From Takakia lepidozioides (taxonomy: Eukaryota > Plantae > Bryophyta), in assembly GCA_030704615.1 (NCBI GenBank), contig CM060731.1, positions 7,564,001 to 7,628,000 on the forward strand: a stretch of DNA of 64,000 nucleotides, given 5' to 3'. The notes below the pieces were generated by a model. The model made no database searches. It had not been told where the DNA came from and saw nothing but the letters and a program-made list of their open reading frames with translations. Position 1 is the stretch's first letter. Each line of letters begins with the position of its first letter. This document shows, piece by piece, positions 9,849 through 40,220 of this stretch. The translations under genes were made by a program, and so were the position numbers.

Positions 9849-9903
9849 CTTGGTATCAGAGCTTAGAGTTCAGTACGCGATCGTCCTTGGGATTGGCCTC
9901 ATC

Positions 9904-15335: not shown

Positions 15336-16059
15336 TGTCGCGGCCCTTTGCCTTGAGGGCAGGGGGGTCGGGACACATGAGGGGTTGCCCCTGTGGTGGG
15401 GGCAGCGGCAGCGATAGGTATGGGGGGCTGAAGCACCCTTGAGTGCCCAAGGCTTCCAAGGAGGCGGAGCCGCTCACTAGGTGGAGCCCCGCACACCGGG
15501 TTGCGGTGGGGGTGGCTCCACAAGGGTGGTGGTAGCTTAGCGGGACTTAGTGGGGTGGCATAGGACTCACCATGGGGGCGGAGACCTCGTGGTGGGAGTC
15601 GTGGGGAGTCTTGGGACTCATCACGGTCCATAGGGGCCGTGGTGAGTGGGCCAAGACTCACCGCGACTCATCACCGGGAGTCGAGGGTTTTCGTGGTGGT
15701 TCGCCATAAAATGGCATGGCTGGTTGTGAAACCCCCGCGGACAGCTACAGAAGTATATATAGGGAGTAGTAACCCCGAGAACGGTGCAAGCCCGTTGGTG
15801 ACCGAAAACTAGTGAGTAAGCGGGCGAGCCGGAAAGCGACCAAAGAGTGGGGAGCTGTTCCGGACTGCCACTACCAAAGGGAATTCCCGCTGGTTCCCAA
15901 ATCGGTGGAGGGTTTTGGGAGAACAAAGGGGGACCGTTATGCCCGGTGAGCAGCCGAAGCTCCAAGTTGGCCCGGCGGCCAGGTTGGGAGTCAGGCGCGC
16001 GCATCAAAGCGAGTAACTATGACTTGAGTGGGGAGCTTACCGAAGTGAGGTGTGCGACA
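15336..16059 (+). repeat. 3' LTR of A2
   Basis: Direct repeat of 9127-9848, preceded by the PPT. Confidence 0.95.
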
Positions 16060-16796
16060 TCCAAAGCACAAGTGGGAGCCCATCCGAGGGATGGGGACCT
16101 CGTAAGTGCTTCTTCATTTTGTACTCACCTTGTTTTTGCATCGCACTTGTGCTACAAGGGGCAGAGCCATTCATTTGGCTGGAGGTTCAATTCCTCTACA
16201 AGTGAGCTATTCCCGTGTCACTACAATCAGTTAGATGTGTTTGTGGTGGTTGCTGGATTTGCGGCTCTGGGGTGTCTTGCCAAGTGCTTGCAGGGATCAA
16301 CGTTAATGTGGACGTGGCAGTACATGTAGCAAAAAAGCTCATTCGCTGGTGAAGAAGACCATGTTGCAACATATGTCATGCTATTGCTTCGAGAGTGCTG
16401 CTGTTGGGCAGGTGGGAGAATGCAACAACGGTGAGAAGGAAAGCAAGGGAAGCACAAAAAGGTGTCGTTCGGTCCTGCTCCTTTGGAGACACCCCCCATT
16501 CCACTGGTCTTTGTTCCTGGAAAGCATGCAGCTGGGCCAGAAAATGCATGCACACATTCACGTCTACTTCCCGTACATGAAGACGATCCTCTCCCTCACA
16601 TGTCAGAAACAATATTGGCAGAACAAAAAAAGGTTTGTTCACAAGACAGTACGGACCACATACCGGGACATTATCGATACTATTAACTGTCTCGCCCTTG
16701 CGCGCTTGCAGGACTGTACAAAATGGGTTCTAAGGACAGTAAGAGTCCTTAGCATAGCTCTCGTCTATGAGCTGCTGGCTTAATGGACACTGAGAT

Positions 16797-19700
16797 TCAG
16801 CTGGGCTCACTATCTATATCCAAATAATCTTCCCCTTCACTACCCACATCTGCAATTTGCCTTGCGGTAATTACCAACCCTGGAATGTCTTCCTCATTAA
16901 AGGTAACTGCTCCTTCCAAAGAGACTGGTTCGGCCGTATCTGGTAGATTTTGTGGTTCCCTCAGACCCTCGTGGTCGGCATTCTCCCCTAGGTCCAGATC
17001 ATGGACGTCGGCCACGACTCGTTTGGCCCGGGGGTCCTTGTGAAGAACCACCTTCCATCCCGGCGCATGGGTGTCATCTGAAAAGAAAACTTGCTCAACT
17101 TGCGATGGGAAGATGAATGGCTCTTCATCTTGTGGTAGCATTTTTCTGAAATCAGCAAGGAGGAACCCGTACTCATCCCGTTTCATGGTGGCATTCTCTC
17201 CTACCATATTGGCTTTTACCCAAGAACAACGGAATAGAATTGGCTTCACAAGACCATAGTCTAGTTTAAGGATCTCTTTGATCACTCCTACATATTGCAC
17301 ATGGCATGAAATTGGATTCTGATCTCGTGCACAGCTCCTACTCTCTTGTTCAAAAAATGATGCCACTCCGCTGTCATAAGTCACCAGGAGGCTGGTGTTG
17401 GCATCGTCCACTCTATAGTGATTGCCATATGCTTTCATTGACCGGTACGAAGTGGCAATCAGCCCTGGGGGGAATGACAGACTCACCATGCCCTCATCTG
17501 GGTCCTCGTTCTCTGATGCGTACACTGCAATTGCAGATCTGACCCACACTGTAAAGGGCTGCAGCTCCTCCATTGTTGTGGGTACTCCACCGGGGATCTG
17601 CGCCTACGACCGCCCCTCCGCCATGCTTTTGCAAATGCACTCCGTTCCGTTTTCAGGCGGACCTTCTCCGCTGCGTACTTTCTGGCAGAAACCAAATAGA
17701 AGCTGCAACTCAGTCCCCCTGACCAACACCGTGCTGTACATGCATGCCACATGCAGAGTGTGTGTCCTTTCAAGCACACTGTAGTGATGCAGCCTACTTC
17801 ATAATCACTTGCAAGCAACAACCCAAGATCTACGAAACACCCTCTGTAGTCGTCTGAAGCACCCTGTTAGTACACGATCCCACTCCCATAGTGGCCGGAA
17901 TGACTTGTGACAATATATATGTAATTCCAGCATACAAAGACCATTAAGAATAGCACAGGAGGGATGTAAGTTGGCACCCACTGTCTCCATGGTGTCATGG
18001 TTGTTGTGTTGTTCAGCACATAATCATGTGCCACATCCCGAAGGCGCGGGCTCATGGCACGCTTTGTTCCACCACCTTCTAGGACCTCGCCTACAACTCC
18101 TTCTTCCTCGTTCTCGTCCCACACCCGTCGTTGTATTGCATCAAATGAAGACATATACTCTGTCATGAAGCCCAGGGCTTCGTCGCGGATGTAGCCCTCC
18201 GCCATACTCCCCTCTGGCCGTGCCATGTTGCGTACACCCCTTCAGATCCTTCATGTACCTCTCCATGGGGTACATCCACCGGCTGGCTACGGGCCCACAC
18301 ACATGCAACTCCTCTACAAGATGCACTAGCAAGTGCGTCATGACGTCAAAGAATGATGGAGGGAATTCTTTCTCCAGCAAACATAGGGTCATAGCCACAT
18401 CCTCATGCAACGATGTAATGTCCCTCGGATCCCACACCTTCGCACAAATCTTCCTAAACACTCGACTTACACGCATTATGGCTGTTCGAGGACCTGGCGC
18501 CATCGTACCCCGAATGCACACTGGCAAAATCTTGCATCATCACGTGTAGATCATGTGACTTCATCCCCGACCATTTCTTGTTTATGGCATGCTTTTGGAA
18601 AGCACCCGAGAATCCGGTTGGCACTTTCATGGCTCCCAATGTCTTCAAAAAATCCTCTTGCTCTGATTTGGTCAGGACGTATGATGCTGCTGGCATGAGC
18701 ACTTTGCCTGGTCTATTTGGATCAGGCCTTAGCCACAGATGTGACCGTATCCCTTCAATCTCCATGTCCTTTCGTACGTTTATCGTATCCTTCTCCCCAA
18801 AGATAGTCTTCAGAATGTTCTCGCAGAAGTTCTTCTCACAATGCATGGGGTCCAGGAGGTACCGCTGCAAGAGGTTCTGAAATGCCAAATGTCCTCCCAT
18901 GAGACCAAGTTCTATGGGCAAAAAAGTAGAATATGTGGCAGAAGTTGTCCATGTTACTACATTCTGCTTTCAACAACTCCACGATCCTCTCCACAGTGAG
19001 GTGTACGACTTCAACATCTACTGCATAGTAGTTACACTGACTTAGGAGTTGGTGGAAGGACTCCTGACAGTAAAGGTAATTCCAGGAAGCACAATGTGAA
19101 AGAAAGTGAGTGAATGGGGGGGGGGATTCATGCACCTTCCAGTATGGCAAATCCCAAAGGATTGTCCGGCGCTTCACCCCGTGCTCCATGGCTGGATCCG
19201 CACTACTTCCGTCTCTCCCTCCAATCTCCATGAACGCCTCTTTCTCCTTTGCAAATTGCAATGTCTCCTCCGGTGTCACAGCATTTGGTGCCATTCTCTT
19301 TTCAACACATCCATTGAAGTGCCTTCCTGCTCGTCGGTAGGGGTGGTTTCTTGCAAGGTAACGTCGATGCCCCATGTATATTGTCTTCCCTAGTGGCTTT
19401 GAGTGCCGTGAATCCACATAGGGCCCACAAATGGGGCACCCTTTGTAGCCCTTCGTTTGCAACCCGCAACAAGGCCATATGCGGGGAAATCGTGGATTGA
19501 CCACATGAGTATGGCACGGAGGGTGAAACTCCGTTGCCCTACTGGTTTCAAAATGTCGTAAGCTTCAACTCCAATCCATAGTTCCTGTAGCTCTTCAATC
19601 AATGGTTGCAAATACACATCTATGTTTGCATTTGTCACGGACTCCTTGCCTGGAATCAAGAGAGACAACATGACAAAATTTCTTTGTTGTCAACCATGGT

Positions 19701-20858
19701 GGCAGGTTGTATGCCACCAACTGCACGGGCCATGTGGACCATGTGCAACTCTTTGATCCGTATGGGTTTACTCCATCCGTAGATACAGCCAATCGCACAT
19801 TGCGTGGGTCCTCGGCAAATCGGGCCAAGTTGCATCTATATGCTTTCCATGCAAGGGAATCTGGGACATGCCTTACCAAACCATCGTTTGAGGCATTCCT
19901 GGAATGCCAAGTCATGAGCTCACTAATGGTCTTGCATTTGTACATTCGTAATAGACGGGGGATAAGGGGAAAGTGCCTCAACACCTTGGCTGGCTGTTGT
20001 AACCTGCCCACATCATGGTATCGGGCTGCACCGCATTTGGGGCACTCCATAGCATCCTTGTACTCTCTTCTGAAAAGTACATGTCCTTTTGGACATGCAT
20101 GTATTTTCACGTAGTTGAGGCCGAGCTTCCCAATCATTTGGTTGGCCATGTGACAGCTTTTTGGCATTTCATTTGGTTGTGGAAGCAAGTTCAGCCGAAG
20201 CAAAGAGAACAACTCGTCAAATGGTCTGAGACACCGTGGGTTGTGCACAGGTTCATCAACAGCATGGTGGCAGCAAGCTTTGTGGATTTGCATCCCTCGT
20301 ACAGTGGCACACATGCTTCTTCTAGTGTCATGTGTGCAGAATTCAATTCTCCATCTCCACCTCCTTCCACGCCTTCCCCCACGTGAATGCCTTCATTTCC
20401 TGCGTCATCACCATCCCCAGTTGTCGCAGCGCCGTCCCCCTCTTCAGCATCGTCCATGATGTGGAATGCTTCCTGCAACATTCGAGTAATCTCCACCCCT
20501 CCGTCCATGCCTGGTTCATGTCCTGCGCCCATGACATAGTCCTCGTCTGGCCTGTCTGTATGGCTCCCTCGGGGTGTGCATTGTCCAATTGTGCCCACTC
20601 CTCATCGTCTTCGTCTGCAGGTCCATCTCCAATCCACACCCGAAATGCTTCATGTCTTTTGTGGTGAAGGAGATGTGTGCGCACACCGTCCTCAGATCTA
20701 CTTGTAGTGCCCAAACAACGTTCACATGGGCATGGCATCCTTGAAAGCCCAAGGGCTCGGGCACGTGCCACTTCTCTTTCCCACAACCTGTCATCTCGGG
20801 TGTTCTGTCTACAGGGGTGATTAATTGGAAGTCCTCCGCATGGGCGAGGGGAACTCAT
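16797..20858 (-). pseudogene. tnpD: CACTA TnpD-type transposase (spliced, frameshifted)
   Basis: MPCPCERC N-terminal domain; IHACPKGH..F...CPKCG, LRHFPLIPRL, DPRNVRL..STDGVNPY, STWPV...YNLPPW, IDVYLQPLIEEL (Transposase_21-like); LDPMHCEKN; FPPSFFDVMTHLLVHL, WMYPMER, PEGSMAEGY (DUF4218-like); LFRCSW, EPFIFPSQVEQVFF (DUF4216-like). Confidence 0.93.
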
Positions 20859-22919
20859 TTTTGTTGGGGAGCCTCTTCAATGCTGTTTGTGCACGCCGTT
20901 GCAGGGGCCGGATTCTCCTTTGCAGAGATTCCTCAATTTGGCTCTGCCACTCCCATTTCACTACCGTCAATTCCCTCCTCCTGCAATCTCAATTTGAAAG
21001 GTTCAGCCGCACATCCTTTGGCAGAGAAGACAGTTGACATTTTAACCATAGATTCCACAACATGATGAAAAGTTACACTCAACAGCAAACCATTTAAAAG
21101 CCATCACGATGCTTCCCATCATAACTAGAATCTTTTCAACAAGACACTGAGAGAAATGACCAAAATCGACTCAAACAACGACATCCTGGAAAACGACCTG
21201 TCTCTACAGTTCGTGTGTGTGTGAGGAATCGGAGGACGTACGTGGAATTTCAATTTTCACGATTGACGACGTTGTGATCTTGGGCATATGGTTGAATGTG
21301 TATGAAATGTGTGCATTGAAGTGTGAACAACCTGACTACAAGGCCAGAACCTGCGCCACTTGTCTTAGGCCATCTCCAAATCACGTTTCGGCGGACAATC
21401 CCGTTCCGTTGCCGTGAAATTGCACCGTGGCGGGAAGGGAGTCCATTTGTGTGGCTATCACCATGGCGGGAAGGGGAGCATGTTAAAATGGAGCATCGCC
21501 CTGCCACTTCACTCATTTGCTGTTTGCAGCTTCTTCCACCATCTTTCTTACTTAATTCTGATTCTTGCAATGCTGCCCTTGAGACGGCAACTGCAAGTGA
21601 CCGGATCCTTTGATCGTCGCATTCAAACACTTACGTGTAGCAGATCGCAGACCCCCAAATGCCTGGAGAGAAAGCCAGAGGCAGTCAATGCATGCACGGT
21701 TGTTTTGCACTGGTTGGGACGGAGTGGGGTGCAGAGGAGGCGTGTTGTGCCCGAGTTCGCATGCCTAGCATCCTGCAGCCGGCGGCTTTTGCACGTTGGG
21801 CAGCAGTACCCTCTGCTGTATGATTACCATTTGTGGTACAGACTCACCGGCCCCCCTGTCCACTTGGGTCTTGGGACAGCGACTTATGGAGTATGTAGAC
21901 AGAGTTGCATGTCGCGCAGGTACACCAAAATCTCCCATGTAACATAAACCCATTTCTCATTCATGCTTGCATGTGATCCACGGGGTAATTTCCATGTTCT
22001 CCCAGCTGATGTGGGTTCGCAAATTCTCGGTGTGTAGGTGTGTGTGTGAGGACCTCAACCTGGCATGGTGCGATGGGTGTCGAATGGACCCTTCTCTGCG
22101 ATGGGAGAACCACTACAGTTGAGTTTGTTTTTGCTGAATCATTTGGCAGAGCACTGTGTTCACTTCTCACACATCATGCGCATTTTCTCCAAGAATGCAT
22201 GTAAAGCGGAGCCATACACGGCATCATTGCAGTGTGTTTCCTTCCTAATTTTGAACGAAAAAAGTTAACGGATCCATGTCAGTTGTGTGAATCACTACAT
22301 CTAGTTGTCTGGAGGATTGTAAGTGGTTTAGGGTTTAACGTCTCAAAGTCGAAAGGCCATAGTGTCGGATGCACGACACGTGTTCATATTTGAAATCAAC
22401 AACGGCCGGATCTTCACTACAGATCGGGGGGTGTGTGATCACACTCCCCTCCTTGTCCTTCTTTCCTCCTTTGCATGTCTTGGTTCCTCGCTCGTCTTTG
22501 TCTTGGTCATGGTCTATGTCCTCGCTCGTCTTCATCTTTGTCATGGTCTATGTCCACGCCTAGTAAGAAGCGCTCGACCGCCGAGGCAGCATCACCTCCT
22601 CCCACTTCTGCACATTCCAGCCCCGCGGTGCGAAGGAGCCCCCGCCTGGCTCGACTGAATCCGGTACAGATGGCGTCGGTGCGAGAGGGAAGGCAGAGCG
22701 GTGGGCGGTCTTCGTTCGGATTTTGACACAAGCGAGTATAGCATGGGCGACGACGATGAGGTGGAGGACAGTTCGGAGGAAATTGCACCTCCATCTGCAG
22801 AGTCTCTCCAAAAGGTGCGCAACGGCAAAACCGCTGCGCATGAGGTGAGTTCTACCCCTACTTGTGTTCTTGTTTTCTGGGCGTTGAGTTCTCCTGAAAC
22901 TGAAACTGGGATGCACATA

Positions 22920-24040
22920 TCCACAAAGTTGTTCAAACGGATGTCGTAGTATACAGGGCAGTAGAAGAAGAAGTGTTCTTCAGTTTCAATTTCCTTGCTG
23001 CGCCCTATGCAAGCTGGACATAGGCGGTCCTCCCGTTGCAGGTTTTCCCATCTGCCAGTCTCTATCCGTAGGTTGTGGGAACCCACCCTGAACCGCCCCA
23101 ATGCCCTCAAGAGGGAAGGAGGTAAGGGTGCTGAAAGGTAATTTGGTCTGAAGATTCTATCATCGCGGAGCACCAAGAATGTCTCTCGATAGAAGTGGAG
23201 CTTTGTTGTGAGATTGGGTAGCATCCAAGTTCTCTTGACATGTAATTCCATAAGCTCTCTCCGAATGAGTCTGTTGCGGTCATGTCTGGATGTGATGTCC
23301 ACCTCATGTGGGTTCATTGGTAATAGGAAAGCAGTAGAAAGTCCGTTACGTTTCAATAACTGTCCACTCGAGCATACCAGGAGTTCCCGAAACCTGCAGC
23401 TTTGAGCCTCATAGATGTTGTGAGGGCCCTTGCCACTAGCCCTTTGGGTGGAAGGGCCTGCAATCTATGGAGAAAGATTGTAAGCCTGAACTGTGCCTCG
23501 GATTGCAATGGTACACATGCGAACTCTGCACCTAGGATCTGAGATGGAGTTGTGCTCCTGGCGCCAAGCATTGCTTGGAGAAAAGATGACTGTAATGGTT
23601 CCAAATTCTTTTCCCACCAGGAGACAGGGACACAGGTGCCCAAACTCACAACCATTGATGGTAGCAGGGCTGACGACGGTGTCAAACAACCACTTTTTGG
23701 TCGGGGGATGCCGCAGATGTATTTGCTTGCATTTGGCGTGAAGGCGGACGGAGGCCGCCTTACCTTTAGTCAATCTGTCCAAGGCAGTGGCTGCAAAGTG
23801 AAACTTGGGGGAGTGGATAACCAGACCTAGGTACCGGTATGATTTGACAATCTCAATTTCCTGCTGGTTGAAGATGAATCTACGATCAGCCTGGCCATTG
23901 AAGACCATGATCTTGGTCTTGCTAAGATTGACTTGCATCCCATAGTCTTTGCAGAACTGTTCCAAAATTTTGATATGGCGTTGCAGAAAGACCGGGGATT
24001 GTGCCAAAAGGGCAACATCATCAGCGTAGAGGAGATCTGA
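22920..24040 (-). mobile_element. Non-LTR retrotransposon (RTE-X-like) RT C-terminal half plus zinc finger, fragment
   Basis: LLYADDVALL, VNLSKTKIMVF, YRYLG; C-terminal RFRVGSHNLRIETGRW...RLCPAC...ETEEHFFFYCPVYYDIR. 5' end truncated at YADD. Confidence 0.85.
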
Positions 24041-26399
24041 TTGGGCAGAAAATGAAGTTAGGCAGAAAACATCCCTGAACATGTTTTCAATTTGTGTCAT
24101 GGGGGAGGACATCGTGGAAAAACCTTCAGGTCTACCACTGTGTGCAGAGGGACTAGTTTTTAGGTCAAGGAAATGTTGCTTTGTCACGTCATTGCACCTG
24201 CGTTGGAGTACGCATTTGCTATATGCGTTGATAACTCCAACGAGGCTAGGTCTGCAATATCCTTTCAATTGAATTGTGTCTGCACCTGTGTTTACCAACA
24301 TTGAGAGTCTTTAGGCCTTTTGGGGCTCCGTTGCTGGGCTCCGCCATACAGCCATTTGCTGATTGTGAATAGATGTCCACTGGATATGTGCAAAACCCGG
24401 ATGGATGTTTCTGTTTCCTGGTAAGTTTCATGTGGTACTGATGTGAACCCGCCCACATTCTGTTTCTTCACCAATGAATGGGCTTACATGTTATGAGGAC
24501 ATTCTGTCCCTCTCCTTTTCAGTTTTTGGCACTTGCGCTGCAGGGGAGTGGGTTTGAGGTCAGCCAATCCATAGTTGTGGTTGTGGGATGGTTTGTGCTC
24601 TGGTGACGTTGTGTTCAGTAGGACTACAGCTGATGCACCTTGTGTGTGGGATGTTTTTGGCAGCGGAAGGGGAGTGAAGCTGCAGCAAAGCACTCACAGC
24701 CACCACACAATGCCAACCAACACCAACCTTGGCACCCACCCCCTGCCGGATGGTCTCCACAACAGAGTGCACCATGGGGAGCCCCCCCTGCTTCGGGGTC
24801 GTGGCGCTGGCTTCCTGATGTTGCCACGTCACAATGGGGGCCTCCCACATCTCCATACGGCCCTCCCCCCTCCGGCACACATCAGTCACCCCCCACAACG
24901 TATGACGGCGCTGCTCCAGAGCATGGGGGCAGGAAACGGACATCAGAGCTGAGGAAGGAACGACGTCATGCCATGAAACAATGGGAAGGAGATGGAGAGG
25001 GAAGGGTGGCTGCAGGGCTAAGCGCCACAAGGTGGAGGTGCATGGAAATGGAGTCATCAATGCTGGCTGCGAAGGTAAGGAACACTGGCAGCGTGATTTG
25101 CGTGGCCTGGCATTGCGTTACCTTGACTCAAGCGTACAAGACATTGACCAGCAGTCCCAGAGTGCCATGTCAACAGTAATAGAGGGCATAAATGGAATGT
25201 ACGAGTACACACCTATCCCTGCCAATCGTGATTTTATAGTGAAGCAATGTGGGAAGATAATGAAAGGAGAAAGAGCAAAACTGAAAGATAAATGGGCGAA
25301 GACTGGTGTGAGGCCAATGAACACTGAACCCGCCTATTGGGATAAGCTTGTTGCCTACTGGGAGTCCCCTCGTGGACTTGCAAAGGCTGAAGGGATGAAG
25401 CAAGCGCGTGCTTGTGTCACGAACCCCTCGCGTTGGGGCCGGGCAGGAGTTGCAGGCCAAGCAGCCCGTTTGGTAATCTCCCTCACCCCCTTCTCATTGC
25501 TCTTACGTTGTGGCATGTTCTGATGGAAGAGACACCCACGAGTGGGTTTTATTGCTTGTGCAGAATTAGTTGTTATGTGATATGCAGGGCAGTGCTTTGT
25601 CCATATGCTCCTGGCATTTTGTACTGACAGTGTGTGGATGGGCAAATACAGAAAAGACGCAAAGCGCGGAGCCCGTCACTGTCCGAGCTCGGGGCGGAGT
25701 GCAAGAACGCTGCGACTGGCACCCCATCAGAGTCTGTTTTGAGCCAGGTATGTTTTGAAGTCCGGTTTCCATTCATGAATCTGTTGTTGTACTAAGATTT
25801 GGTGGGTATGTGGGGCCCCCACGCATGGTACACGAGGGGTGTTATGCCAAACCTAGCCATCTCCGAATGCCTGAAATCCTGCACATTCGGCCTCTTCTTC
25901 TGGTTTTTAACAGTACGGGTGGGTGTTTGTATGCGTAGGGAATGGCAGCCCGCATCGGGGCCCTGGAGAGGCTTGCGGCTCTCTCTGCGGAGCGGGAGAG
26001 GGGAATGGAAGCACAACTGAAGAAGATAGTCATGATGGGGCAAAAAGGGGGTGTGACGGGTGGCATTATGGAAGACCCCCCTGCTGCGACCATTGTACCT
26101 GACAAGGAGGAAGTAATTGTAGTGGGTAGGGATGTGACAGAGGTCCGGGCTGTTGTTGATGATATTCACAGTGGGGGGCAGGGTCCACTCGTTGAAGAGG
26201 GAGAGGTCCAGCAAGTTGGTGGGGATGACATGGACGATGGGGGGTCATTGCTCATGATGGGGGAAAAGGGGAAGCTGTAGGGGGAGAGGGTGGTAGTTTG
26301 CCTGGTCCAGGCTGCAGGGGGACCGAAACTTTGCCCTCCGGGGTGACTGTTGTCTCCCAACCCACTGAGGTGAGACCCCGTGACACCCCTTCAAAAGCT

Positions 26400-26960
26400 C
26401 CTTTCATAGAAAAGTCGAAACTAATTGTTCTAGACCTGAACGGGATCCTGTGCCACTCTATTCCTAACTTTCAGCCCAACCCGAGGCGTCATTGGCCATG
26501 GGTGTTGACCACCAACAAGTATGTTTTCCCAAGGCCCCAGGTCTGCGAGTTTTTAAACCTTCTCTTCCGGTATTTCTACGTTGGGATATGGTCCTGTGCT
26601 TCCAAGGGGAATGTTGCAGACATCTTCAAAGTGGTGCAGGGGGTCAAGGGTTCTCCCCTCTTTGTGTGGTCACAAGAGGAGTGTGACCCCTTGACAGAGC
26701 CACACCCCACAAAAGGGCCTGCCGTACAGAACTTACAGAAGAGACTGTCGAGGGTGTGGTCGGAATTTTCTGGATTTAACGAATCCAACACCTCCTAGTG
26801 GATGATTCACCACACAAGGGGAGGGGGAACTCCCCTTTGAACATGGTCCATCCATTGTCGTTTGATGTCACTGGCAATGTCAGTGAGGGGCCCGATTCAG
26901 ACTACCTTTTAGAAACAGTCTGGCCCTACTGCCAAGATTTGTTTTGCTCCAAGGATGTGC
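26400..26960 (+). pseudogene. FCP1/NIF-like HAD-superfamily phosphatase domain inside the CACTA
   Basis: KLIVLDLNGILCHS, FPRPQVCEFL, FYVGIWSCA, LFVWSQEEC, KRLSRVW, F..SNT-(frameshift/stop)-DDSPHK...N...HP.SF: motifs occur in the order typical of the DLNG-type NIF/FCP1-homology family. Confidence 0.8.
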
Positions 26961-29677
26961 GTGTCTTCACAAGCACGCGGAAGCTGACCCCGACTGGCAG
27001 CTTGAATGTGGGAGAGGATGGGGTCGTTGGGGGAAGTACTTCTGCCCATGCAGGTGAAACTAACCTTACTGTTTGCAACATGACATCGAAGCCAAAGTCC
27101 ATGTTTGTTTTGTTCCCCCCGGATGCCCTCTCACGCAAGGCTGGCACTATATGTTTTGCAGGGACCACATGTACAGGGAGTGGCAGTGGGGTCGAATGTG
27201 AAGAAGGTGGGTCCTGCGCCGACCATAGTGCTACGGCGGCAGCATTCCGGATTCCCCCCCCGGCATGAGGAGGCAGCGCCCAAGGTATGGTTGTTCCCAG
27301 CCCCTCTCCGCAAACTTACTTGGTTGGTTTCCTTTATGGATACACTTCCTGAAGCGTTGCAATGTGTATTCATTGCAGGTGAGCAAGAGGAGTGGGCTGT
27401 CCCCGGCACCATCATCGCAGCAGGACGTGGTTCCCCAGGCATGCATTCATGGCTCCTTGCTTTGCCTGGCTGGTTTTTAGTAGGGTTATTTTTGCCAGGA
27501 AGTTGTAGTGCTAGGGTCTGAGCAGGGTGTTTGTTAGCTTGCTCCGTGGAGGTGTGTTTATACCATTGCAACCACCAGAGTTCATGTTATTCTTATCCGT
27601 CTGACTAAACCTCTTTTTGCTGCTGCTGCAGTTGAAGACACGTGGGCAGCTTTCCTCAGTTGCCACCCTCAGCGACGAGCTTCGCTTCAAGGTACGTTGG
27701 TACACCGTGAATTGGCTGCTGATTCAGTATTGTGGCAACCAAGATCGTTTCCATGCCCAGCTGCGCTTGACTTTCACCCTGTCATTGCTATGTTTGTTGC
27801 TGAGTGGACCCTGATGTTGGTGTCTGCAGATATCAGATCCTGTGTTTCTCCTGAACCCCCATGACAAGCGGTCAAAGACAGCCGCCGCCAAGGCGGAAGT
27901 GGTGGGAATAGCCGGGGTTGACAAGTTCCACTGCAAGGACATTCGATCCGGGTGGTACAAGGTGAAAGTCCACGAGATCATGCTTCCAAGTGTTACATTG
28001 CCTTGCCCAAATGTGGACGATGCCCCCCCCAGACCACACTAGCGCACGTGAAAGGCACGGTGACTCTGTGGCCAGAGAAGAGTATGAGGAAAGGTGAAAG
28101 TATCAAGTGACATTTCATGTTTGTAGTCCCTGTTGGGTGTGTAATGATACTCATAGAAGTGTGTATGATACTCACGTTACCAGTTTTGAACATTTGGGCC
28201 ATGACAGTTTAAGTGATGTCCGGCAACCATGTATGTTGGCATTTAGTCTTGCTCATATGCAGGTGTGCCGTGACGGTCTCTAATTTGAATGTAATATCAC
28301 ATTTCCTGACTTGTCGTCGTGTCCGTCCACCTTCTATGTGTATGTGTGATGGTCTTTGGTCTCCCTGTTGCCTCGTCTATTTGGTTCATTAGCGTGATGT
28401 TGTGCATGCATCGTGGTCTGTGTTCTCAGTCTCGCCCAGTATCATTGCTTCTCAATTCCCCCTGCATATGGGTGAACCACTAAAACCAGTAGAATGCATC
28501 AGAACCATATTTTCAGCTTAGAATGCAGGTCAGTTGGAAACTCACACAAACCACTACAAGTGCTCATTTTTGCTTTCCTACTGTAGTGCAACCAACTAGC
28601 ACAGTGGCAGCGGAGTTGGCCAAAGCAGTCCCGAGATGGCACAAGCACTCTGCGTCTTTCCACTAGCAGTCGTACCCGTCACTGCCATTGCGTGGGGACG
28701 ACGCCACGCGTCGACCCACACACTCTCCACGTGGTCCCCGTGGATTCGTCTGCCGGAAGTTGTGCAGTTGACTTCGCCAGTGGCTGTTGCGACGTCACAT
28801 GCAGCACTCCAAGTGATGTGGCCGACTGCGATGTGGCGTCTTGGGCCGTGGCCAGCGGCAGCATTGCCGCTCGTCGCGGCGCCGCCACATCGGCATCCAC
28901 GTCCGCGTCCATGTGTGTCACCGCGCCCCGGGTGAGTCAGTCCACTCATCCGGAGGGAAAAGTCAAAGTCAGCCCAAAAGGTCAGACACACGGGCGGCCC
29001 GCCTGGTTACGCCACGTGGTTCTTCAGCATTAATCGCATTAATCGCTGAGCAGTTGTTCGCGCGTCTGCGTCCTTTACCACTCCAATCATTGGATGTCCA
29101 ACCCAACTACCACGTCTGTTGTAACTAGTCTGTTGTAACTTCCAGTCGATCCCAGTTTTTTGACTTTTACGACTCAAAATGAGTCGTTACCCCAGTGGTA
29201 AATGACACGAATGCTTCTAGTGCATGTTGAATTTCAGATGGACAAACATTTCAGAGATACTACTGGCACTTCGAGTCAAATCAGATATCTCCGGTGCTAA
29301 GACATAGCTTACTAATTGTGGGTTATGTGGGAGACAAAAGATATTAGTGAGTTTGGGTCTTCGCAAGAGGCAGCCCGCACATTTGTTCTTTGTGCTCTCT
29401 TTGTGCTCTGATACTCTTCTTGTTCTGCTTTTGTGCAACAATCAAGCCCATAATGTAAAGCTCTTGAGAGCCATGACATTTGAAAGGGTTGTGTTTGGTA
29501 TGTTGACGTGTTAACTCGGGATTCTCAGCAGGACCAATGTTTGTGGTTGCACGCACAAAGTCAGCACATTCAAGCGTTCCCAGGTATAGTTTATTCATAT
29601 GGATTGAATGATGATTCACAAGGATCGTCTGAATTTTTGACATACTCTTTATCAGTACTGCGTTGTTCTGTCCACAC

Positions 29678-30304
29678 TGTCACGGACATAGCCCAGAGGA
29701 ATTTACCATGAGTAAATACCAGAAGTTACCAAGTTATCATGTTACCGAAAGTTACCATGATTTACCATGATCTACCATGATTACCATTAGTTACCAAGTT
29801 ACCGGGAGTTTACCAAATTACCAAGAGTAACTTGGGAAACTGTTGAAGAAGCTTCCTTTGGAGGAAACTTCTCCATCAAAATACCTCATTTGTTTAAGGA
29901 AGCCTTTCCATCAAGAAACCTTTTGTTTAATCTTGGAAACTTCTCCAGCAAGAAATCTCCATAGGGGAAGCTTCTTAGGGAAGCTTTTTAGTAGCCAGTA
30001 TATATAGGAGGCGAGACTATACACTCTTTAGTCTCGCTAACACCAGTTCAAGCTACTCTTGTTTCCAGTTTCCAGTACTCCAGTCCAGTTCCCAGTACTC
30101 TAGCCCAGTTTCCAGTATCTGGTATTCCAGTCCAGTTTCCAACATTCCAGTATTCAAGTCGTATTCCAATATCTTGTTCATAAAGATCGTCTTGATTCAT
30201 ATTACTCATCGTGCATACGGCCACGCCGACCTTGACTTCTTGTCTAGTCTTGTATCTCTAGTCTGATCACTTGTTTGTGTTCAGTCATGTTCTTGTCCTT
30301 GACA
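29678..30304 (+). repeat. 5' LTR of Gypsy family B
   Basis: TG...CA ends; homologous to the split solo LTR 751-7132; TTACCA-type internal repeats; TATATATA near 29999. Confidence 0.9.
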
Positions 30305-30342: not shown

Positions 30343-30960
30343 ATGGAAGACACATTTGCAGAAATGGTCGCCACATTGCAGAGTCTTCAGCTCCAGATGC
30401 AAGAACTTCATGCATCTACTGCCCAACTACAAGTTGATCAGTCTCAAGATCTTGGCAACGCTATCAACAATTTGCAACAATAAATTTCAGAGTTGAAGGA
30501 GTCGAGCAATGGATCTTCAACCTTACGAGTCCCTACTACAACAAATCCTACTGCAACGGTTCCTCCAAATCTTCAACAAATTACAATGGAACCAAAGGTC
30601 GGCATGCCCGAAAAATTTGATGGGACGAAATCAAGATTTCGCGGTTTTGTTCAACAAGTACGATTGTTCCTACGACTACATCCACAACGTTACCCTGATG
30701 AAGGTATTCAAGTGGGATTCGTGGGCACCCTTCTATCAGGCACTGCCTTATCTTGGTTTGCACCGCTACTAGAAAAAAATTCGCATTTACTATACAATTT
30801 TGAAGCGATCATGTCCGAGTTCACTGCAACGTTTGGAGAGAATGATAGAGAGAGAATTGCAGAGACAAAGATGCGAAATCTTCGACAAAGAGCACGTCCA
30901 GCTTCCGTTTATGCTGCCGAATTTCGACAACTTGCGTGCGACCTCGACTGGAATGAGAAG
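30343..30960 (+). pseudogene. gag: Tcn1/sushi (PEG10-like) Gag, stop at 30481, truncated at a junction with Helitron sequence
   Basis: Coiled-coil N-terminus, then PEKFDG...FVGTLLSGTALSWF...F...FG...LRQ...ASVYAAEFRQLA..LDWNE. Confidence 0.88.
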
Positions 30961-33103
30961 GTTACAAAACCAACGAAGACGTTTTCAAAAAGAATTGTAG
31001 ATACGGATTTCCCGCTATCTTAGTTGAAGAAACGCATTTCGACGATGAAACCGGGCTGCTGCATATAAAACGAACCGACAGATGGTTGAACAACGCAAAT
31101 CCATGGATGTTAGTATCAGGAAGATGCAACCACGATTTGAAATTCATCGGTGCTTCAGGGAAAGACACAAAGGCTCTGATATACTACATCACGGATTACA
31201 TCACAAAATCTTCCGTCTACACATCACACATGTATTCGCTTTTGCAAATAGCCGTAAAAAAGATCAAAACGACTTATGACGATCTATATTCCGAATATTC
31301 AGTTGAGAAAAGCCGCAAATTGTTGATTCGATGTTTAAACACGATCGGATCGCAACAAGAAATCTCGGCGACAAGGGCAGTCAGTTACCTTATGAAATAT
31401 CCACACCATTTGACAGACCACCAGTTTGCATATTTGCCGTGGTATAGTTTATCGGCATAGATTCGCGAACAAGAAAAATCTCAATCGAACAAAGATGGAA
31501 ACAACGATCTGAACAGCACACCTGACGATAACGACCCCGAAAACACCTTCGAAACATTCAAAGTTGAAAGATCCAAACCGAACGACAAGTTGATTATGTA
31601 AAATTTCCGCATCGACTACCAAAGCAGGCCACACAAGTTCAAGGAAATGTCACTTTACGAGTTCTGCAGTAAATCGTGCAATGTGAAAAGCCCGTACTAC
31701 TACAAATTTATGCATGAACATTTGCAAAGTGACACCCACAGTGTATATGAATCTCAAGTAACCAAAGTGCCGGTAATACAAGGCTACAAAATACCTTCGA
31801 AAAAAAATGATGCGGCAACGTACGCTCGCGCTGTTTGTATTCTGTTCATGCCATGGAGATCTATCCACGACTTAAGATCGCAACAAACTTGGGAAGACAC
31901 TCTCGACGAACTATATCCAATATGTTCGGAATTCAACAGAAAAATCATCGCAAATATCGGCATGCTACATGAATACAAATAATCACGAGACTCCGACAGA
32001 CTGTTATTGAAGAACGAAAATCCAAACGATGACGAGAACCCAGAAGACATCAACATCGACCCCTTATACAATGAGATGCTAGATGAAATGCACGAAGACA
32101 ATGACGACGATATATATGTGGACAAGAATTCGGCGTCGCAACATACAGAAAACATAGTCACAAATGGCCAGAAGTTACAAATCGAATATCTTATGTGCAA
32201 TACAAACGAAAACAATTACGTGGCCGAAATTATCAACAAGCTCGTTACGGATGCCAACGGGAAAAAATCATCACAACCCCATACCGCACCAAAAATAGGA
32301 ATGGTCCAAACTGCATCCAAAAAATCAAATAGAACCCAGATCAATAAATGGTTGAAAACATTACGCGAATCCAAAATCCCACCCGCTAGCATTGACAACG
32401 AACTGTACAAGTTCGCAAATCCAAATCAGTCATCCAAAAAATTAAGGGAGATTCCAAAAAACGAACCAATGGACATCCCAGATGACGACAATTACGATGT
32501 AGATCCTGATATCGTACACAATGCAGATCAACATCAAATAGCTAAATATTTTGTCATGAAAAAATACAAGCTCAACACTTCGCAGGAAATCAACATTTGA
32601 ACGTTTCATAGACCCACAAAATCACCATCCCGATGTAAGGAAACAAACGTTAATGTACGTGGGAGGTGCTGCCGGAACGGGAAAGACCGAAATAATTAAA
32701 GCAATGCAAACGTATTTCATAAAAACCAAGAGACCAAAAATCCTGAAAATCGGTGCTTACATAGCCAACGCCGCAACCCTCATAGGGGGATCAACCATCC
32801 ACGCTTTATTGGGACTCAAAATCAGCCAGAACATCAATGAATCCGACACAAAAAGTTTCATAAACGAATGGTCGGGAACTAACTATTTGATTATAGACAA
32901 AGTATCTATGGTCGGATGCAACATGATCGCTGATATTCATCTGAAATTACAAAAATTCAAATCAAACATGTTACCATTCGAAGGACTCAATATAATGTTC
33001 ATGGGCGATTTCATGCAGTTCCCACCAGTCACCGACGCGCCTCTCTACTCAACGAACATACAGCCCATATTCACATTCACAAAATACACACAAAAAAAGA
33101 TTA
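30961..33103 (+). mobile_element. Helitron RepHel internal fragment (Rep C-terminal part plus Pif1 helicase N-terminal part), degraded
   Basis: CRYGFP...KRTDRWLNNANP...RCNHDLKFI...ALIYYITDYITK (Rep tyrosine motif); ILFMPWR; GGAAGTGKT Walker A; GGSTIHALL; IIDKVSMV; GDFMQFPPV. Confidence 0.88.
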
Positions 33104-33684
33104 CTGAAATCGGGAATTTGTTCGCATTGCAGACCTTGTAAGTTTCAACTGTCCTGTGGATCGCCATCAAAGCCTTTCCACGTGTTTGTGATTTTGTGAG
33201 GGCTGCTAGCTGGGATGCCAGGGATGATCTGAGGGTGGGAGGCTGGCAAGAAAGAGAAGGAGGGAGAGACGGAACTGAGCTTCTGTAGGCCTTGTTCAAA
33301 TGGTGGTTGTTATGTGATGCATATGGCCAGGGACCTGCATAGCAACAACTTTAGTGGAAGCATTCCTACCACATTGGAGAACATCACAAATCTAAACTTG
33401 TTGTGAGTAATTTATAACCTTGTTGTCATTATTGCAGGTGCAAAGTATCTTACTAGAACTCCAATGACATTCATATTCTGGCAGTGGCGTTGTTGGGGAA
33501 GAAGTATCAGGAACCATTTAGCTTTAAAGTACACATGTTTGTAGGGGATGTCAGTGAAATCTTTGTCACTTAACACCCCCCCACCTCCCCCCCCCACTAG
33601 CCCCACGCCCCTTACAGCAGCCTACCTGTGGTATTGAAATGGTGGAGTGTGGGAAGAGTCCGTCTTCAGTCTATACTTTGTGCC

Positions 33685-34612
33685 TGTCGAGCGGCTTTTA
33701 CTCACCCATCCCTTCGCTATCCGAGGTGGGAACTCCAAGATAGAAGAGTTGGAAATCTCTAAGCACTCAGCCCGCTCAGAACAATCAGTCATGACCTACA
33801 GCTAGTGTATCATGGGGATGTTTCCCTATTTGTACTCCTTCCCACATTCATGTTAGCGAGTTACCTTACTATCTGCAATTAAGCATCAGTTTGCTTCAAA
33901 TTCTATCAAGTTCCATCCATTCATTCATTCCACAGTTTCACTCAGGTCTCTCTACACAGTGTGAGTATGAAGTATGTATCAGATTAATATCTATCAAGTA
34001 TCAGGCTGAAGCCATGGTGTCTCTAATCTACTCTACATTACAATTCTACAGCTTGCATTCATGAAGTAACAACAGATCGTCACTTCTCCTACTGCGTGCT
34101 CTTCATCTTTCCATTCAGAGATGTGCTCTCCCCTCTATTTCCCAGCCCTGATGTAAGAAGTCCCCCACCAAGAAGTGACCCCCCCCCCCCAAAGTGATTT
34201 CTCGTCCTCCCGCTCTTCACTTTTTCCACTACAAGTTGTTGTTTCTAACGGCTTTCCTAACTAGCCGTCATCCCTGTAGTACACGTTCATTTTTCAGATG
34301 TCGTTCCCAGTTCCCAGCTGTGCCGAGCTGTGACTGGCTGTATCAGGCTGTGGCGGGCTGTGACTGGCTGTGCAAAGCTGTGGCGGCTGTGTCGGGCTGT
34401 GACGGGCTCTGTCGGCTGTGTCGGACTGTGACGGGCTATGTTGGCTGTGCGAAGCTGTGACGGGCTGTGATGGACTGTGTCGGGCTATGTATCTCCCCCC
34501 TAAAGCCTGTTGCTGTCACCCCTAAGGCTCCTGATGGTCTCAGTCTGTGTAAAAATTAAGGGTACCCCACAGATCCCGTAAAAGCGTCTAAGTCCCAAGC
34601 AGCCCTCTAACA
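33685..34612 (-). repeat. 3' LTR of C (contains a GGCTGTG[T/A]CG 10-mer tandem array at about 34315-34490)
   Basis: Direct repeat of 40221-41162. Confidence 0.95.
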
Positions 34613-34651
34613 TTTACCCCTCCCCCTCTCAAAAAGCCGTGTCCTCACGGT

Positions 34652-37648
34652 TTACTGTTTGGGATTAGCAAACCTTTGTGAGCGAGCACCCTTCTGACGT
34701 TGAGAGTCTCGTGAAGGACTCCGTGTGCGAGCCCGTGTCCTGTCACTGGTTGAGGGAGATGATTGAGCACTACCTGGAAATGTCAGTCCTTCCTTTGGCT
34801 GATATCGAGGTAATCTTTCAGGCATAGGAGACCCCCGTCGCTTCTTCTCTGCCATCTGAATTGCATAGTCCTCTGCCATGTCAAAAGAGTCTGCTGAAGA
34901 ACCAGTAGTATCAGAATCCTCGTCCCCTCTGAGGTGTTTTAATGGTCGAACTCTAACTGGAATCCGTTCGGGCATACAATGTGTTCCCACCATGTCTGGA
35001 AGTTTAAACCGTAAAACTTGTTGTAAGCGCTGAATTGCAAAATTGGTGAAGACCTTGAACTCCTTGTCTGTCCAGATGAGTGGTGTACCAATGACTTGTG
35101 AATTGTGCAAGTTTTTCCATGCCTCATGGCCCTTAAAGAAAATATCGTCAGGCCCGAATTTCTGTGTTGACAAATTGTTCCAGGCCGCATGAAACCATGA
35201 AAGAAGTTGGGAATCCTTTTGCATCATCACCTTTGCATCATAGAGGTACATATGAGGTGGCACTGAAGGTAAGACCCAATGATCCCCACTGGAATAACTC
35301 AGAAATCGCGATTGCATTTTCTGCTGCTCAATGTGATAATGTGCCAGAAAACAAGCAGCATAGTATAACCCGCAGCCCATGACAATACTTGCTACCTCCT
35401 TGGTCTTGGTATAAATGAATCCATGTACAACTTGGGGTGCTGCTATCTGTGCATACCGTCTGACAAATCTTCTGTAATAGCTGGTTTGTCCCAGGAATCT
35501 CCTTAGACTCTTAGCATTTACTGGGGGTGGAGAGGCTTTAATGGCCTCTATCTTTCTGGGATCCACAAGAAGTCCCTTCTTGCACACAATGTGTCCCAAC
35601 AACACCCCAGAGTTCACACAGAAAGTACACTTCTCTGGATTCAGGCCCAGACCTCTCATCCTGCATCTGGCCAAAAATAACTCTAATTTATGCAAGTGCT
35701 CACTTTTAGAGCTGTACACACTGAAATCATCCAGAACACCCTGCATGAAGTCATCCAGATACTCCTGAAAGGATTCACTTATCACTCTCTGAAAAGTTGC
35801 TGGTGCATTACAAAGTCCAAAAGGCATGACTTTGTATGCATAAGCACCCCAGTCTGTGATGAAAGCTGTCTTTCCCTGGTCTTCTTCTGCCACTTGCACT
35901 TGATTATATCCACTGAAGCCATCCATGAATGAGTATATCTCATGGCCTGCCACAGTGTCCAATACTGCTTCTGTGAATGGCAAGGGAAATGGATCCTTCT
36001 TCGTGCAAGCATTCAACTTCTTATAGTTCACACAAACTCTTAGTTTACCATTCTTCTTGGGAACTATCACAATGGGTGACAACCAAGTTGTATACTCTAT
36101 TGGGTATATAAACTTAGCCTCAACCAACTTCTTGATCTCTTCTCCAACCTTCTGTGCATAGTTGGGATTCATTATGTACCTTGCCTGCTTGATTGGTACT
36201 GATCCTGGTTCCAGTTCAATCTTCTGCTGACAGATCTCAGGTGGTATCCCTTTTAGATCCTCGTAGCTCCAAGCAAATACATCTCTGTATTTGATGAACA
36301 AACTCTTGGCTTCTTCAAAGAATTCTGGCTCCAAATCTGCTCCTACCTTCACCATCCTCGGTTCCTCTTCAGTTCCCACATTCACTTCCCTCACCTGCTC
36401 ATCAACTGTGATTGTCCAACCAGTCACCACTTCATCCTGTAAACTCACAGTGGCCGGTTCCTCTAGGATTTCCATCTCTCCCTCCTTTTCTTCATAGAAA
36501 TGTGGTGGGTAACTGCTGGTTTCCTCTTCAATTGGTGTTGCCGACACTACACCACAACAGATACCTCTTAAACAACTTAGGCCTTCCAGTCGCATCTCTG
36601 CAACCTGCTCCCACTCTGGGTGTGCAGCGAACAGGGTAGCTTCCTGCTCCTCATCCAGTCCTCCCCTCCAATCATACTCTCTGACCCCTCGAGGTCTTCT
36701 CGTAGCAGGTAATCTATTAGATTTCTTAGTGGTAATTTGTATCTCGTGCATCCCATTATGCACAGTTAGTAACTGAGAATTCCAGTCATGGAATACCCTG
36801 GCCTGTTTCAGCCACGGACGTCCCAATAATAAGGAATAAGCCTCCATGACTTCATCCATCTTCAACACAGTTATTGTGATCATAAAGATCATCTTCTGTA
36901 TCTGTATCTTAACTCCTCTTATCAATCCCAATGGCTGTACACTTCTTTGATCTGCCATTGTTACTGTAAATGGGGCTGGTTTCATGTTACTTAGACCAAA
37001 CTTCTTCCTTAATTGGTCTGTCATGATATTTTCTCCAGAGCCTCCATCTATCAGTACATCAGTTAGTTCTGTGCTTCCAATTCTCAATTGGATTACTGGC
37101 ATAGAATCATCAAAGTCCATGACTGTTTCTCGCCCTTCCGGCTTCACATTATAACTGGTCACCTTGCTGTTCAGGTCTGTGTTTCCTGTCTCCTGGGCAA
37201 TTCGATTGATTGCTTGATACAGCCTGTGTCGACAATAAGGTGCCATAGCCAATAGCTGTCCAATGGTAATCTTTGCTTTGGTCTGGCATATTACTTCAGC
37301 CAAAGTCCCTTCATTACTTTGCATGTCTGCAACTTCTTTCTTCATTTCATCCTCACTCACTTCTTCTTCTCCATCAGAATCAGAGGAATCTGCCACAGAA
37401 ATATCAGTATTCTTCTGCATTTCCCTTATGATATCTGCCACTTCCTTGTGCAGTTCTTTCTCATCTCTCCAAGCCTCATCATCTTCAGGCATATCACTGC
37501 CATCTTCATTATCATTATCTTCCTCAACTACTGGAGGTATTAGTTTGGTTTTGCTTCTTGTTACTATCATTGTACTTACTTCTGGTACAACACATGGCCT
37601 AACCATGTGAGCTGCCACCACTGGGCCCTCATTCACAGGAGCTCTCAT
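34652..37648 (-). CDS. pol: Protease-RT of element C fused in frame to about 260 aa of unknown sequence (998 aa ORF)
   Basis: VLIDGGSGEN protease; KKNGKLRVCV, DGFSGYNQ, MPFGLCNAPATFQR, VLDDFSVYS, FLGQTSYYRRFV; homology stops at YAQIAAP (about 35433). Confidence 0.85.
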   Translation of the reverse strand: MRAPVNEGPVVAAHMVRPCVVPEVSTMIVTRSKTKLIPPVVEEDNDNEDGSDMPEDDEAWRDEKELHKEVADIIREMQKNTDISVADSSDSDGEEEVSEDEMKKEVADMQSNEGTLAEVICQTKAKITIGQLLAMAPYCRHRLYQAINRIAQETGNTDLNSKVTSYNVKPEGRETVMDFDDSMPVIQLRIGSTELTDVLIDGGSGENIMTDQLRKKFGLSNMKPAPFTVTMADQRSVQPLGLIRGVKIQIQKMIFMITITVLKMDEVMEAYSLLLGRPWLKQARVFHDWNSQLLTVHNGMHEIQITTKKSNRLPATRRPRGVREYDWRGGLDEEQEATLFAAHPEWEQVAEMRLEGLSCLRGICCGVVSATPIEEETSSYPPHFYEEKEGEMEILEEPATVSLQDEVVTGWTITVDEQVREVNVGTEEEPRMVKVGADLEPEFFEEAKSLFIKYRDVFAWSYEDLKGIPPEICQQKIELEPGSVPIKQARYIMNPNYAQKVGEEIKKLVEAKFIYPIEYTTWLSPIVIVPKKNGKLRVCVNYKKLNACTKKDPFPLPFTEAVLDTVAGHEIYSFMDGFSGYNQVQVAEEDQGKTAFITDWGAYAYKVMPFGLCNAPATFQRVISESFQEYLDDFMQGVLDDFSVYSSKSEHLHKLELFLARCRMRGLGLNPEKCTFCVNSGVLLGHIVCKKGLLVDPRKIEAIKASPPPVNAKSLRRFLGQTSYYRRFVRRYAQIAAPQVVHGFIYTKTKEVASIVMGCGLYYAACFLAHYHIEQQKMQSRFLSYSSGDHWVLPSVPPHMYLYDAKVMMQKDSQLLSWFHAAWNNLSTQKFGPDDIFFKGHEAWKNLHNSQVIGTPLIWTDKEFKVFTNFAIQRLQQVLRFKLPDMVGTHCMPERIPVRVRPLKHLRGDEDSDTTGSSADSFDMAEDYAIQMAEKKRRGSPMPERLPRYQPKEGLTFPGSAQSSPSTSDRTRARTRSPSRDSQRQKGARSQRFANPKQ

Positions 37649-39612: not shown

Positions 39613-40220
39613 GTCCCATGTCTTTCATTTCTTTTAATGTGGCAATAACCAAAACTCTCTTCTGTAATATCTCTCGTATATGCCTGGGTTTCTCTCAAGC
39701 TTCAATGTTCCTCTAGATATACTAGAAGTCTCCGTTACCATATACCCATATGGTAAACAAGTCTGAAAAGCTGTTCTTGGTGTGAGTTTGATCCACAAGA
39801 TATCCTTTGGAATCCAGTTCTTTACCAGTACAAGTTCCTCATGCATATGAGTATAAACATTCACCTTTCTTTCCACCCAGCCTTCAAACTCTACTCGTTT
39901 AATGGATAGCAATGCTATCACATAAACCAGTGTTGGTAACCAACGTGCTATTCCTCTACAGGCCACTTGATAAATCTTTATCACTCCTTTCTCCAGACCC
40001 CATTCAGGGTCAGCATCATGCACTATTTTAAGAATGTTTTCTTTACAACCGCTGGCAATTCCAAGAACCTCTGAAAGAATCGTTTGGACAATCTTTCCTT
40101 CTCAGTTTCACAGGGAATTTGATTCACATCAAATTCTTTAATTCTCCATCCACCATGATCCCACCAGATGCCTGTCACATCTGGTTGTTCATGACCCAGT
40201 TCCCCAGTATGGTCGCCAAA

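Follow-up and report, generated by a model that had tools for sequence, protein, structure and literature searches.

A NIF/FCP1-type domain of the DxN subfamily within the putative TnpA-type accessory gene of a CACTA element

Overview

The window, i.e., the whole stretch of 64,000 nucleotides that was analysed, contains a CACTA element whose second gene very likely carries a NIF/FCP1-type domain fused into it in frame. The domain has probably been retained by selection. That it serves as a tethered, non-catalytic phosphate-binding module in a protein of likely TnpA type is plausible and, judged from sequence, slightly short of probable.

Borders and architecture of the element

The element extends from 7566 to 29222. 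It is bounded by perfect 18-bp terminal inverted repeats (TIRs) starting with CACTA (7566–7583 on the plus strand and the inverted match at 29205–29222 on the minus strand), and both ends are flanked by the 3-bp target-site duplication CAT, read directly from the sequence, with identical letters at 7563–7565 and 29223–29225. The right end is also marked by contig ends and by the depth of run X4, which drops steeply between 29132 (6755) and 29375 (212); in addition, a contig of run X12, belonging to an 87% relative, aligns up to 29222 and then runs into a different flank. TIRs beginning with CACTA, a 3-bp target duplication, a TnpD gene and multiple dispersed copies together identify the element as CACTA/En-Spm. 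In the search for subterminal repeats, which covered exact 8–10-mers in the outer 1 kb of both ends taken together, none was present in more than three copies. An alternative pair of ends (CACTACAGT at 22111/28588) was dismissed, being 9 bp long and without a target duplication.

The element contains two divergent genes. The TnpD/TNP2 transposase gene lies on the minus strand (16797–20876), where Pfam reports Transposase_21, DUF4218 and DUF4216 above the cut-off and Transpos_assoc below it; the second gene, which includes the NIF domain, is on the plus strand. The left arm holds an LTR retrotransposon (9127–16059) with paired 730-bp LTRs that are 96% alike and target-duplication letters that agree at 4 of 5 positions. 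It would represent an insertion into one copy, outside the CACTA family proper, and without it the element measures about 14.7 kb. Open frames without a Pfam match are also present in the left arm (8107–9025 and 16307–16783) and could belong to a further accessory gene, and an internal duplication (8318–8558 and 8787–9025) is 78% alike.

Between the two genes lies a LINE fragment on the minus strand with approximate borders 22877–24430, a reverse transcriptase match (RVT_1, E 5e-11 at 23468–24310), a depth of 30,000–70,000 and loose ends at 22877. The junction of this high-copy fragment is bridged by a contig of another study (22547–22967), so the LINE may have been amplified along with the CACTA element. 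If a first exon lies at about 22747–22845, as is possible, the LINE would be in intron 1 of the accessory gene. A pyrimidine-rich 34-bp tandem repeat (2.2 copies, 22485–22559) is found between the divergent genes.

As for the rest of the window, positions 749–7132 hold nested LTR elements, in which a 5.7-kb element (1083–6809) splits an LTR with an intact relative at 29678–30304. The same LTR family is present inverted at 9127–16059 and partially at 56745–58552, the sequences being 91–97% alike. A fragmented Helitron-like sequence (30957–33141, PIF1 helicase piece with E 6.5e-16) interrupts a Ty3-type gag starting near 30340, and a Gypsy-type element occupies 33685–41162 on the minus strand, its 930-bp LTRs holding 10-bp tandem arrays.

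Identity and fold of the domain

The second gene encodes a NIF domain of the FCP/SCP fold. This HAD-type domain of the C1271.03c-like DxN subfamily spans 26418–26983 on the plus strand according to Pfam, phmmer and the structural model. Its match to PF03031 (NIF) has an E-value of 1.1e-8 and 35.3 bits, above the Pfam cut-off of 21.8, as the initial annotation had anticipated when it proposed this family for checking. All the HAD motifs quoted there were recovered on the plus strand, including RP, FL, IWS, W.Q..C, K.L..VW and DDSPHK. The stretch KLIVLDLNGIL starts at 26418, which puts the motif I Asp at 26433 and the Asn at 26439, and DDSPHK is located at 26801; thus motif I reads DLNGIL, motif II is Ser, motif III is Lys and motif IV is DD.

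With 26400–26795 as query, phmmer reports 794 cluster representatives (E≤0.001), and comparison of a 95-row profile with the PDB retrieves UBLCP1, SCP1–3, CTDNEP1 and Tim50 (E from 3e-16 to 4e-7); the single-sequence PDB search gave nothing relevant. The AlphaFold2 model of 26400–26789, which is based on the 95-row alignment, has a pLDDT of 90, and Foldseek matches it to CTDNEP1, SCP1–3, Tim50, UBLCP1 and Fcp1 with E-values between 1e-6 and 2e-3.

Exon structure and reading frame of the accessory gene

The gene model comprises seven exons on the plus strand. Exon A (24634–25472, 5' border uncertain) encodes a Pro/Gln-rich part followed by a helical TnpA-like region that leads into the start of Transposase_24. 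Exon B (25652–25747, 96 nt, AG..GT, phase 0) is joined from 25748 to 25962 in run X12. Exon C (25939–27053), defined by short-read contigs and phase, encodes a coiled-coil-like start, a Gly/Val/acidic linker and the NIF domain. Exons D (27162–27284, 123 nt, AG..GT, phase 0, low complexity) and E (27379–27438, 60 nt, AG..GC donor, phase 0) are predicted from sequence and phase. Predicted exon F (27632–27691, 60 nt, AG..GT, phase 0) and predicted last exon G (27830–28110, with a window frameshift in a C run) are both kept in a diverged contig, in which the introns flanking exon F do not align.

In the window the reading frame is shifted near 26790, which splits the NIF domain, and near 26238, which cuts the domain from the upstream coiled coil. 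These frameshifts are not a feature of the CACTA family. Short-read contigs from three studies (X1, X4 and X6) carry extra letters at 25019, 25940, 26029, 26238, 26790 and 27043, and those of X1 and X4 also at 26630; the sites are those among the matches listed, and they explain every gap counted in X4 and X1 contigs over exon C. The TnpD gene shows the same pattern, with five listed window indels absent from the X4 contigs. Errors of a long-read assembly are a more likely source than one damaged copy of an intact family, since nearly all differences are missing letters.

With N placed at six extra-letter sites, exon C measures 1140 nt, begins and ends in phase 0 and gives 380 codons without a single stop; motif I falls on codon 172 and DD on codon 296. 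Its frame is in phase with all flanking exons, and exons B, D, E and F consist of whole codons. The NIF domain shares its exon with the coiled-coil-like stretch and, therefore, would not be separately spliced in or out barring cryptic sites.

Splicing of the upstream part is supported by a 618-nt X12 contig, 88% alike, which covers 25023–25472 and whose junction between 25748 and the beginning of exon C falls on the predicted sites. Its length corresponds exactly to 450+96+72 nt, i.e., to exon A, exon B and the start of exon C, and DNA contigs retain the introns across which it joins. The exon A–B joint is absent among the X12 matches listed, and X12 is taken to be RNA by guess, no run being recorded as such. 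The spliced contig stops about 420 nt before motif I and comes from an 88% relative, not from the abundant subfamily. In run X11, the coiled coil and motif I are covered by separate pieces, 88% alike, and there is also a 1248-nt contig whose match is limited to 39 nt around motif IV; the flanks of this contig, translated by eye, continue the element-type frame. None of the RNA-type contigs listed bridges the coiled coil to the NIF domain, or the domain to exons D–G. Thus, the proposed splicing of the domain to the TnpA exons holds for the upstream junctions, whereas its downstream half was not seen among these contigs. A mature protein containing both the NIF domain and exons D–G is what the gene model would predict.

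Copy number and diverged relatives

In run X4, the contig that passes from the coiled coil into the domain (25941–26666) has a depth of 1662 and the next one 2189, compared with 2168–2420 for TnpD contigs and 28–38 for lone diverged contigs; across 16061–29222 the depth is about 50 times that of the lone contigs. Since the domain and TnpD contigs so far exceed the lone diverged ones, roughly 45–60 near-identical copies would be present, most of them with the NIF domain, depth being a rough proxy and not a copy number.

Related copies are also represented by more divergent contigs. One X4 contig is 84% alike over the C-terminal half of the domain and aligns again at exons F and G, leaving the stretches between them unaligned. 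Some relatives of the element are damaged in the region of the domain: in a rearranged contig of an 88% relative, seen in X4 and X1, TnpD sequence is joined to the NIF domain, and in a diverged DNA contig 26132–26558, motif I included, is replaced by 122 letters. The domain is therefore not confined to a single copy, the outcome that had been named as evidence against its significance; X4 depth and relatives 84–88% alike both point the other way. When exon A is compared with a related contig, 15 of 30 listed differences occupy third positions and synonymous changes make up 12 of the 26 altered codons; this count, which used 30 listed of 63 differences, is a small sign of coding constraint.

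The view that the domain is built into the accessory gene is thus upheld by the stop-free frame of exon C, by the location inside a CACTA element bounded by TIRs and a target-site duplication, and by the presence of the domain in most copies and in diverged relatives.

Run X8, which bears a second species label, contains pieces 97–99% alike to both element genes (window 20024–25572). X8 and X7 come from the same study, so contamination and a close relative are indistinguishable, and X8 was left out as evidence of spread. Another run that contains the element bears the label plant metagenome.

Relationship to TnpA

According to Pfam, exon A matches Transposase_24 (PF03004) with an E-value of 0.05 and 14 bits against a cut-off of 28.7. 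ESM Atlas gives hits in plant clusters (0.92–0.95), and 6 of 30 hits belong to sets in which PF03004 is found on 32% of members. The single-sequence model of exon A is all helical with a pLDDT of 54 and has no clear fold match. At the other end of the gene, the 68-aa piece of exon G has no relevant match in Pfam or ESM Atlas; by eye it resembles the C-terminal Tnp1 (PF03017)/DUF8039 pattern of TnpA. As for the flanks proposed in the initial annotation, the domain indeed sits between the Transposase_24-like exon and the 3' exon at 27830–28110, but the Tnp1/En/Spm name of the latter was confirmed by neither Pfam nor ESM Atlas.

Gene position, exon structure, the sub-threshold Transposase_24 match and the Atlas neighbours moderately support a TnpA-like N-terminal part, which would then correspond to the TnpA DNA-binding domain. 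The accessory gene probably works like a TnpA gene and is a candidate member of that family. A recent preprint (bioRxiv 10.64898/2026.08.24.746577) describes TnpA as binding groups of motifs near the ends of elements and as switching on cognate copies by way of host demethylases. Subterminal clusters of the kind that TnpA binding would lead one to expect did not stand out in the outer 1 kb at either end of the present element, which speaks against a TnpA.

Conservation of the DxN motif

Subfamily counts were made on 154 homologous domains scoring above 40 bits, which come from 151 proteins. The nucleophile Asp is present in 149 of the 154 domains, Asn two places on in 148 and Lys in 151; in motif IV the first Asp is found in 145 and the second in 134. 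The element domain has the majority residue at D12, N14, G15, R45, W64, C95, K114, D135, D136 and K140, ten positions at which the family counts range from 134 to 154 of 154. In comparison with seven homologues, Asp, Asn, Gly, Arg-Pro, Trp-Ser, Cys, Lys, Asp-Asp and Lys are all kept despite an identity of 28–34%.

The element domain also fits the C1271.03c-like pattern (DxNG in motif I, W[ST]S, W.Q..C, K.L..W and DDSP.K). The relatives that carry a name are hypothetical proteins of Sphagnum and Ceratodon and a "C1271.03c-like" plant protein, P0007. The catalytic motif I of FCP1/SCP enzymes, DxDx(T/V), is not matched, the element having DLNGIL. Hence, the FCP1/NIF-type assignment made earlier stands as regards PF03031 and the FCP/SCP fold, while the subfamily is C1271.03c-like DxN and not FCP1/SCP proper. 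Likewise, the Asn that had cast doubt on catalysis is indeed there, but decay specific to the element is ruled out, Asn being the norm in the homologous domains. With Asn normal in so many of them, DxN is therefore inherited, and dephosphorylation of the Pol II CTD is unlikely.

In the part of the literature accessible here, the fungal DXNXT NIF group is listed as candidate pseudophosphatases (PMC13216928). Judged by its motif, the element domain would likewise be a pseudophosphatase, presumably non-catalytic on phosphomonoesters.

Origin of the domain

The element domain is 28–34% identical to moss host domains, and Ceratodon and Sphagnum hosts are 53–55% identical to each other; these moss host domains belong to other species, and the own host gene of the source organism is not among them. 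In the tree it sits on a long branch, separate from the conserved land-plant host clade, and groups with the long-branch proteins P0001, P0082 and P0110 (SH-aLRT 90–92), near a viral-metagenome protein. The AU test rejects placement within the moss host group, which was picked after inspection of the tree (p 0.025), but does not exclude a grouping with plant host genes (p 0.36), and for this reason no viral origin is claimed. The smaller tree took in 46 of 155 rows. From these sequence comparisons the capture of the domain appears to be old, and P0001, P0082 and P0110 may come from similar elements or from domesticated copies. Three further proteins, P0104, P0148 and P0180, have DxN NIF domains on 167–170 kb contigs (one of them viral-metagenome) or in a Geosiphon bromodomain fusion.

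Regarding domain combinations, Pfam covered 76 of the 151 homologues, namely those of at least 330 aa, and found a transposase domain in none of the 76 (best five families for two of them). Members of the host family are fused in some species to DUF724, a GeBP-like DNA-binding domain (DBD) or a bromodomain, and two homologues have CCCH zinc fingers. BLASTP of nine gene-model pieces against the 151 homologues gave nothing at E≤0.01. Searches for fused proteins are weak negatives: 1 of 50 candidates matched when the domain was used on proteins of 232–2000 aa, 0 of 775 with exon A, and 1 of 3777 with a five-row profile on proteins of 1321–3770 aa, the latter being a fungal NIF-bromodomain protein. 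Among metagenome contigs, 373 pattern matches yielded 0 confirmed cases. A locus from the metagenome TIR scan (L001) was dismissed as chance, having no further likeness.

Possible roles of the domain

According to the mechanism that we propose, central exon C encodes the coiled-coil-like stretch and the DxN NIF/FCP1 domain in one frame, and this domain, by prediction, holds on to phosphorylated partners without removing their phosphate. The accessory protein would tether this phosphate-gripping module to the DNA of its own element, where the module would help the element stay transcribed or assembled for transposition. In its broad form the proposal is possible but more doubtful than not: a plant CACTA lineage, probably moss-wide, would long ago have fused a DxN pseudophosphatase to TnpA, and the resulting DNA-tethered phospho-reader or trap would grip phosphorylated Pol II or a silencing factor and so keep the element active.

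The strict conservation of the remaining active-site residues is also compatible with catalysis. The same fusion might contain a working hydrolase that acts on the ends of the transposon DNA or on RNA of the element, its substrate being an unusual one with a good leaving group (for instance, a cyclic phosphate or the terminal phosphate of a nucleic acid). We consider this unlikely. The element retains the nucleophile Asp, the motif II Ser, the Lys and the metal-binding DD, while Asp, Lys and the first motif IV Asp occur in 145–151 of the 154 homologues, and the two homologues with CCCH zinc fingers fit an activity of this kind. In other CACTA elements, however, TnpD and host repair are sufficient, and the literature searched gives no substrate for the DxN NIF family. 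A biochemical parallel in the accessible literature, T4 Pnkp, can be read both ways: with DxN the phosphomonoesterase is abolished and the phosphate-bearing product trapped, and the D167N enzyme is left with about 7% of its cyclic phosphodiesterase activity (PMC3592404).

The domain could instead act in trans, without DNA tethering, as a decoy for or competitor of a host DxN NIF protein or a silencing factor. In some species host relatives are fused to domains linked with chromatin or DNA, which agrees with such a role, as does the low identity of the element domain to moss hosts compared with that among the hosts themselves, a divergence expected of a conflict protein. Nevertheless, the domain is retained as part of a TnpA-like protein, not encoded by a gene of its own, and no host partner is known, which makes this explanation less probable still.

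CACTA elements are known to capture host sequence, as noted in the available text of a 2026 review (PMC13317346), and a host fragment of the Pack-CACTA type could be in frame by chance and have been amplified in a young burst without any role. Near-identical copies are uninformative on selection, and the relatives broken across the domain are what such cargo would leave. However, invariant residues that are still in place at about 30% identity to any host gene imply long survival under constraint. Moreover, nesting in the moss host group is rejected and TnpD is present, at variance with a Pack-CACTA; the domain outlasts the adjoining introns in the 84% relative, and a more distant RNA-type contig has the motif IV region in frame. 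Neutral cargo is accordingly regarded as very unlikely. Equally improbable is the strong form of the initial annotation, an active CTD-type phosphatase working on Pol II at the chromatin of the element, for which the FCP/SCP phosphatase fold and family speak, but against which stand the missing general acid Asp and motif I Thr, the DxN subfamily membership and the inertness of a D-to-N change at the same place on phosphomonoesters in Pnkp (PMC3592404, accessible text).

Comparison with known systems

The initial annotation knew of no phosphatase–TnpA fusion, and neither the protein searches nor the full-text literature searches, which exclude subscription journals, Repbase reports and bioRxiv supplements, retrieved one. 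The word "phosphatase" is absent from the main text of the TnpA preprint (bioRxiv 10.64898/2026.08.24.746577) and from that of the 2026 review of gene capture by plant transposons (PMC13317346). According to the same preprint, as far as its main text goes, TnpA-like proteins occur in flowering plants only among 962 Repbase structures; with a bryophyte host, the present gene would extend them beyond that group.

If selection has kept the domain, phospho-signalling would be another front of transposon–host conflict. If the tethered phospho-reader is real as well, it would mean anti-silencing through phospho-signalling, in addition to the Ulp1, SET and TET cargoes already known, and would offer a first functional handle on a pan-eukaryotic family of candidate pseudophosphatases. 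The fusion also gives a context for the widespread DxN NIF family. The CACTA family looks young and intact in short-read contigs and, therefore, is a practical source for cloning and assay. To our knowledge, known transposon accessory enzymes have DNA, histones or SUMO as their targets.

With En/Spm elements (maize Spm, Arabidopsis Spm1 and Spm3), as far as the accessible descriptions go, the present element shares CACTA TIRs, the 3-bp duplication, TnpD and a multi-exon Transposase_24-like gene; unlike them, it has an internal NIF/FCP1 DxN domain and two divergent genes. Among phosphatase-like proteins, FCP1, SCP1–3, CTDNEP1, UBLCP1 and Tim50 have the HAD Rossmannoid fold and motifs II–IV in common with the element domain, which differs in motif I (DLNGIL versus DxDx(T/V)) and in which BRCT, UBL or a membrane anchor were not seen. 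The C1271.03c-like and fungal HAD-type NIF proteins are closer, sharing the DxN of motif I, W[ST]S, W.Q..C, K.L..W, DDSP.K and the FCP/SCP fold (PMC13216928, accessible part). In contrast to these relatives, the domain described here resides inside a transposon protein, no transposase domain having been found in the 76 long homologues.

Two transposon systems provide further analogies. The Plavaka elements of red algae, giant members of the EnSpm/CACTA superfamily, have enzyme-like accessory genes (PAG1–3) for which modification of their own chromatin has been proposed; their cargo includes N6-adenine methylase, SET, ParB and 2OG-oxygenase, and a phosphatase is not listed in the accessible text (bioRxiv 10.1101/2025.02.11.637652). 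Kaonashi/VANC-Ulp1 of VANDAL Mutator elements likewise has the domain of a host enzyme of post-translational modification inside a transposon regulator gene, that domain being a SUMO protease in a Mutator element according to the available text (PMC13317346), whereas here it is a phosphatase-like domain in a CACTA element.
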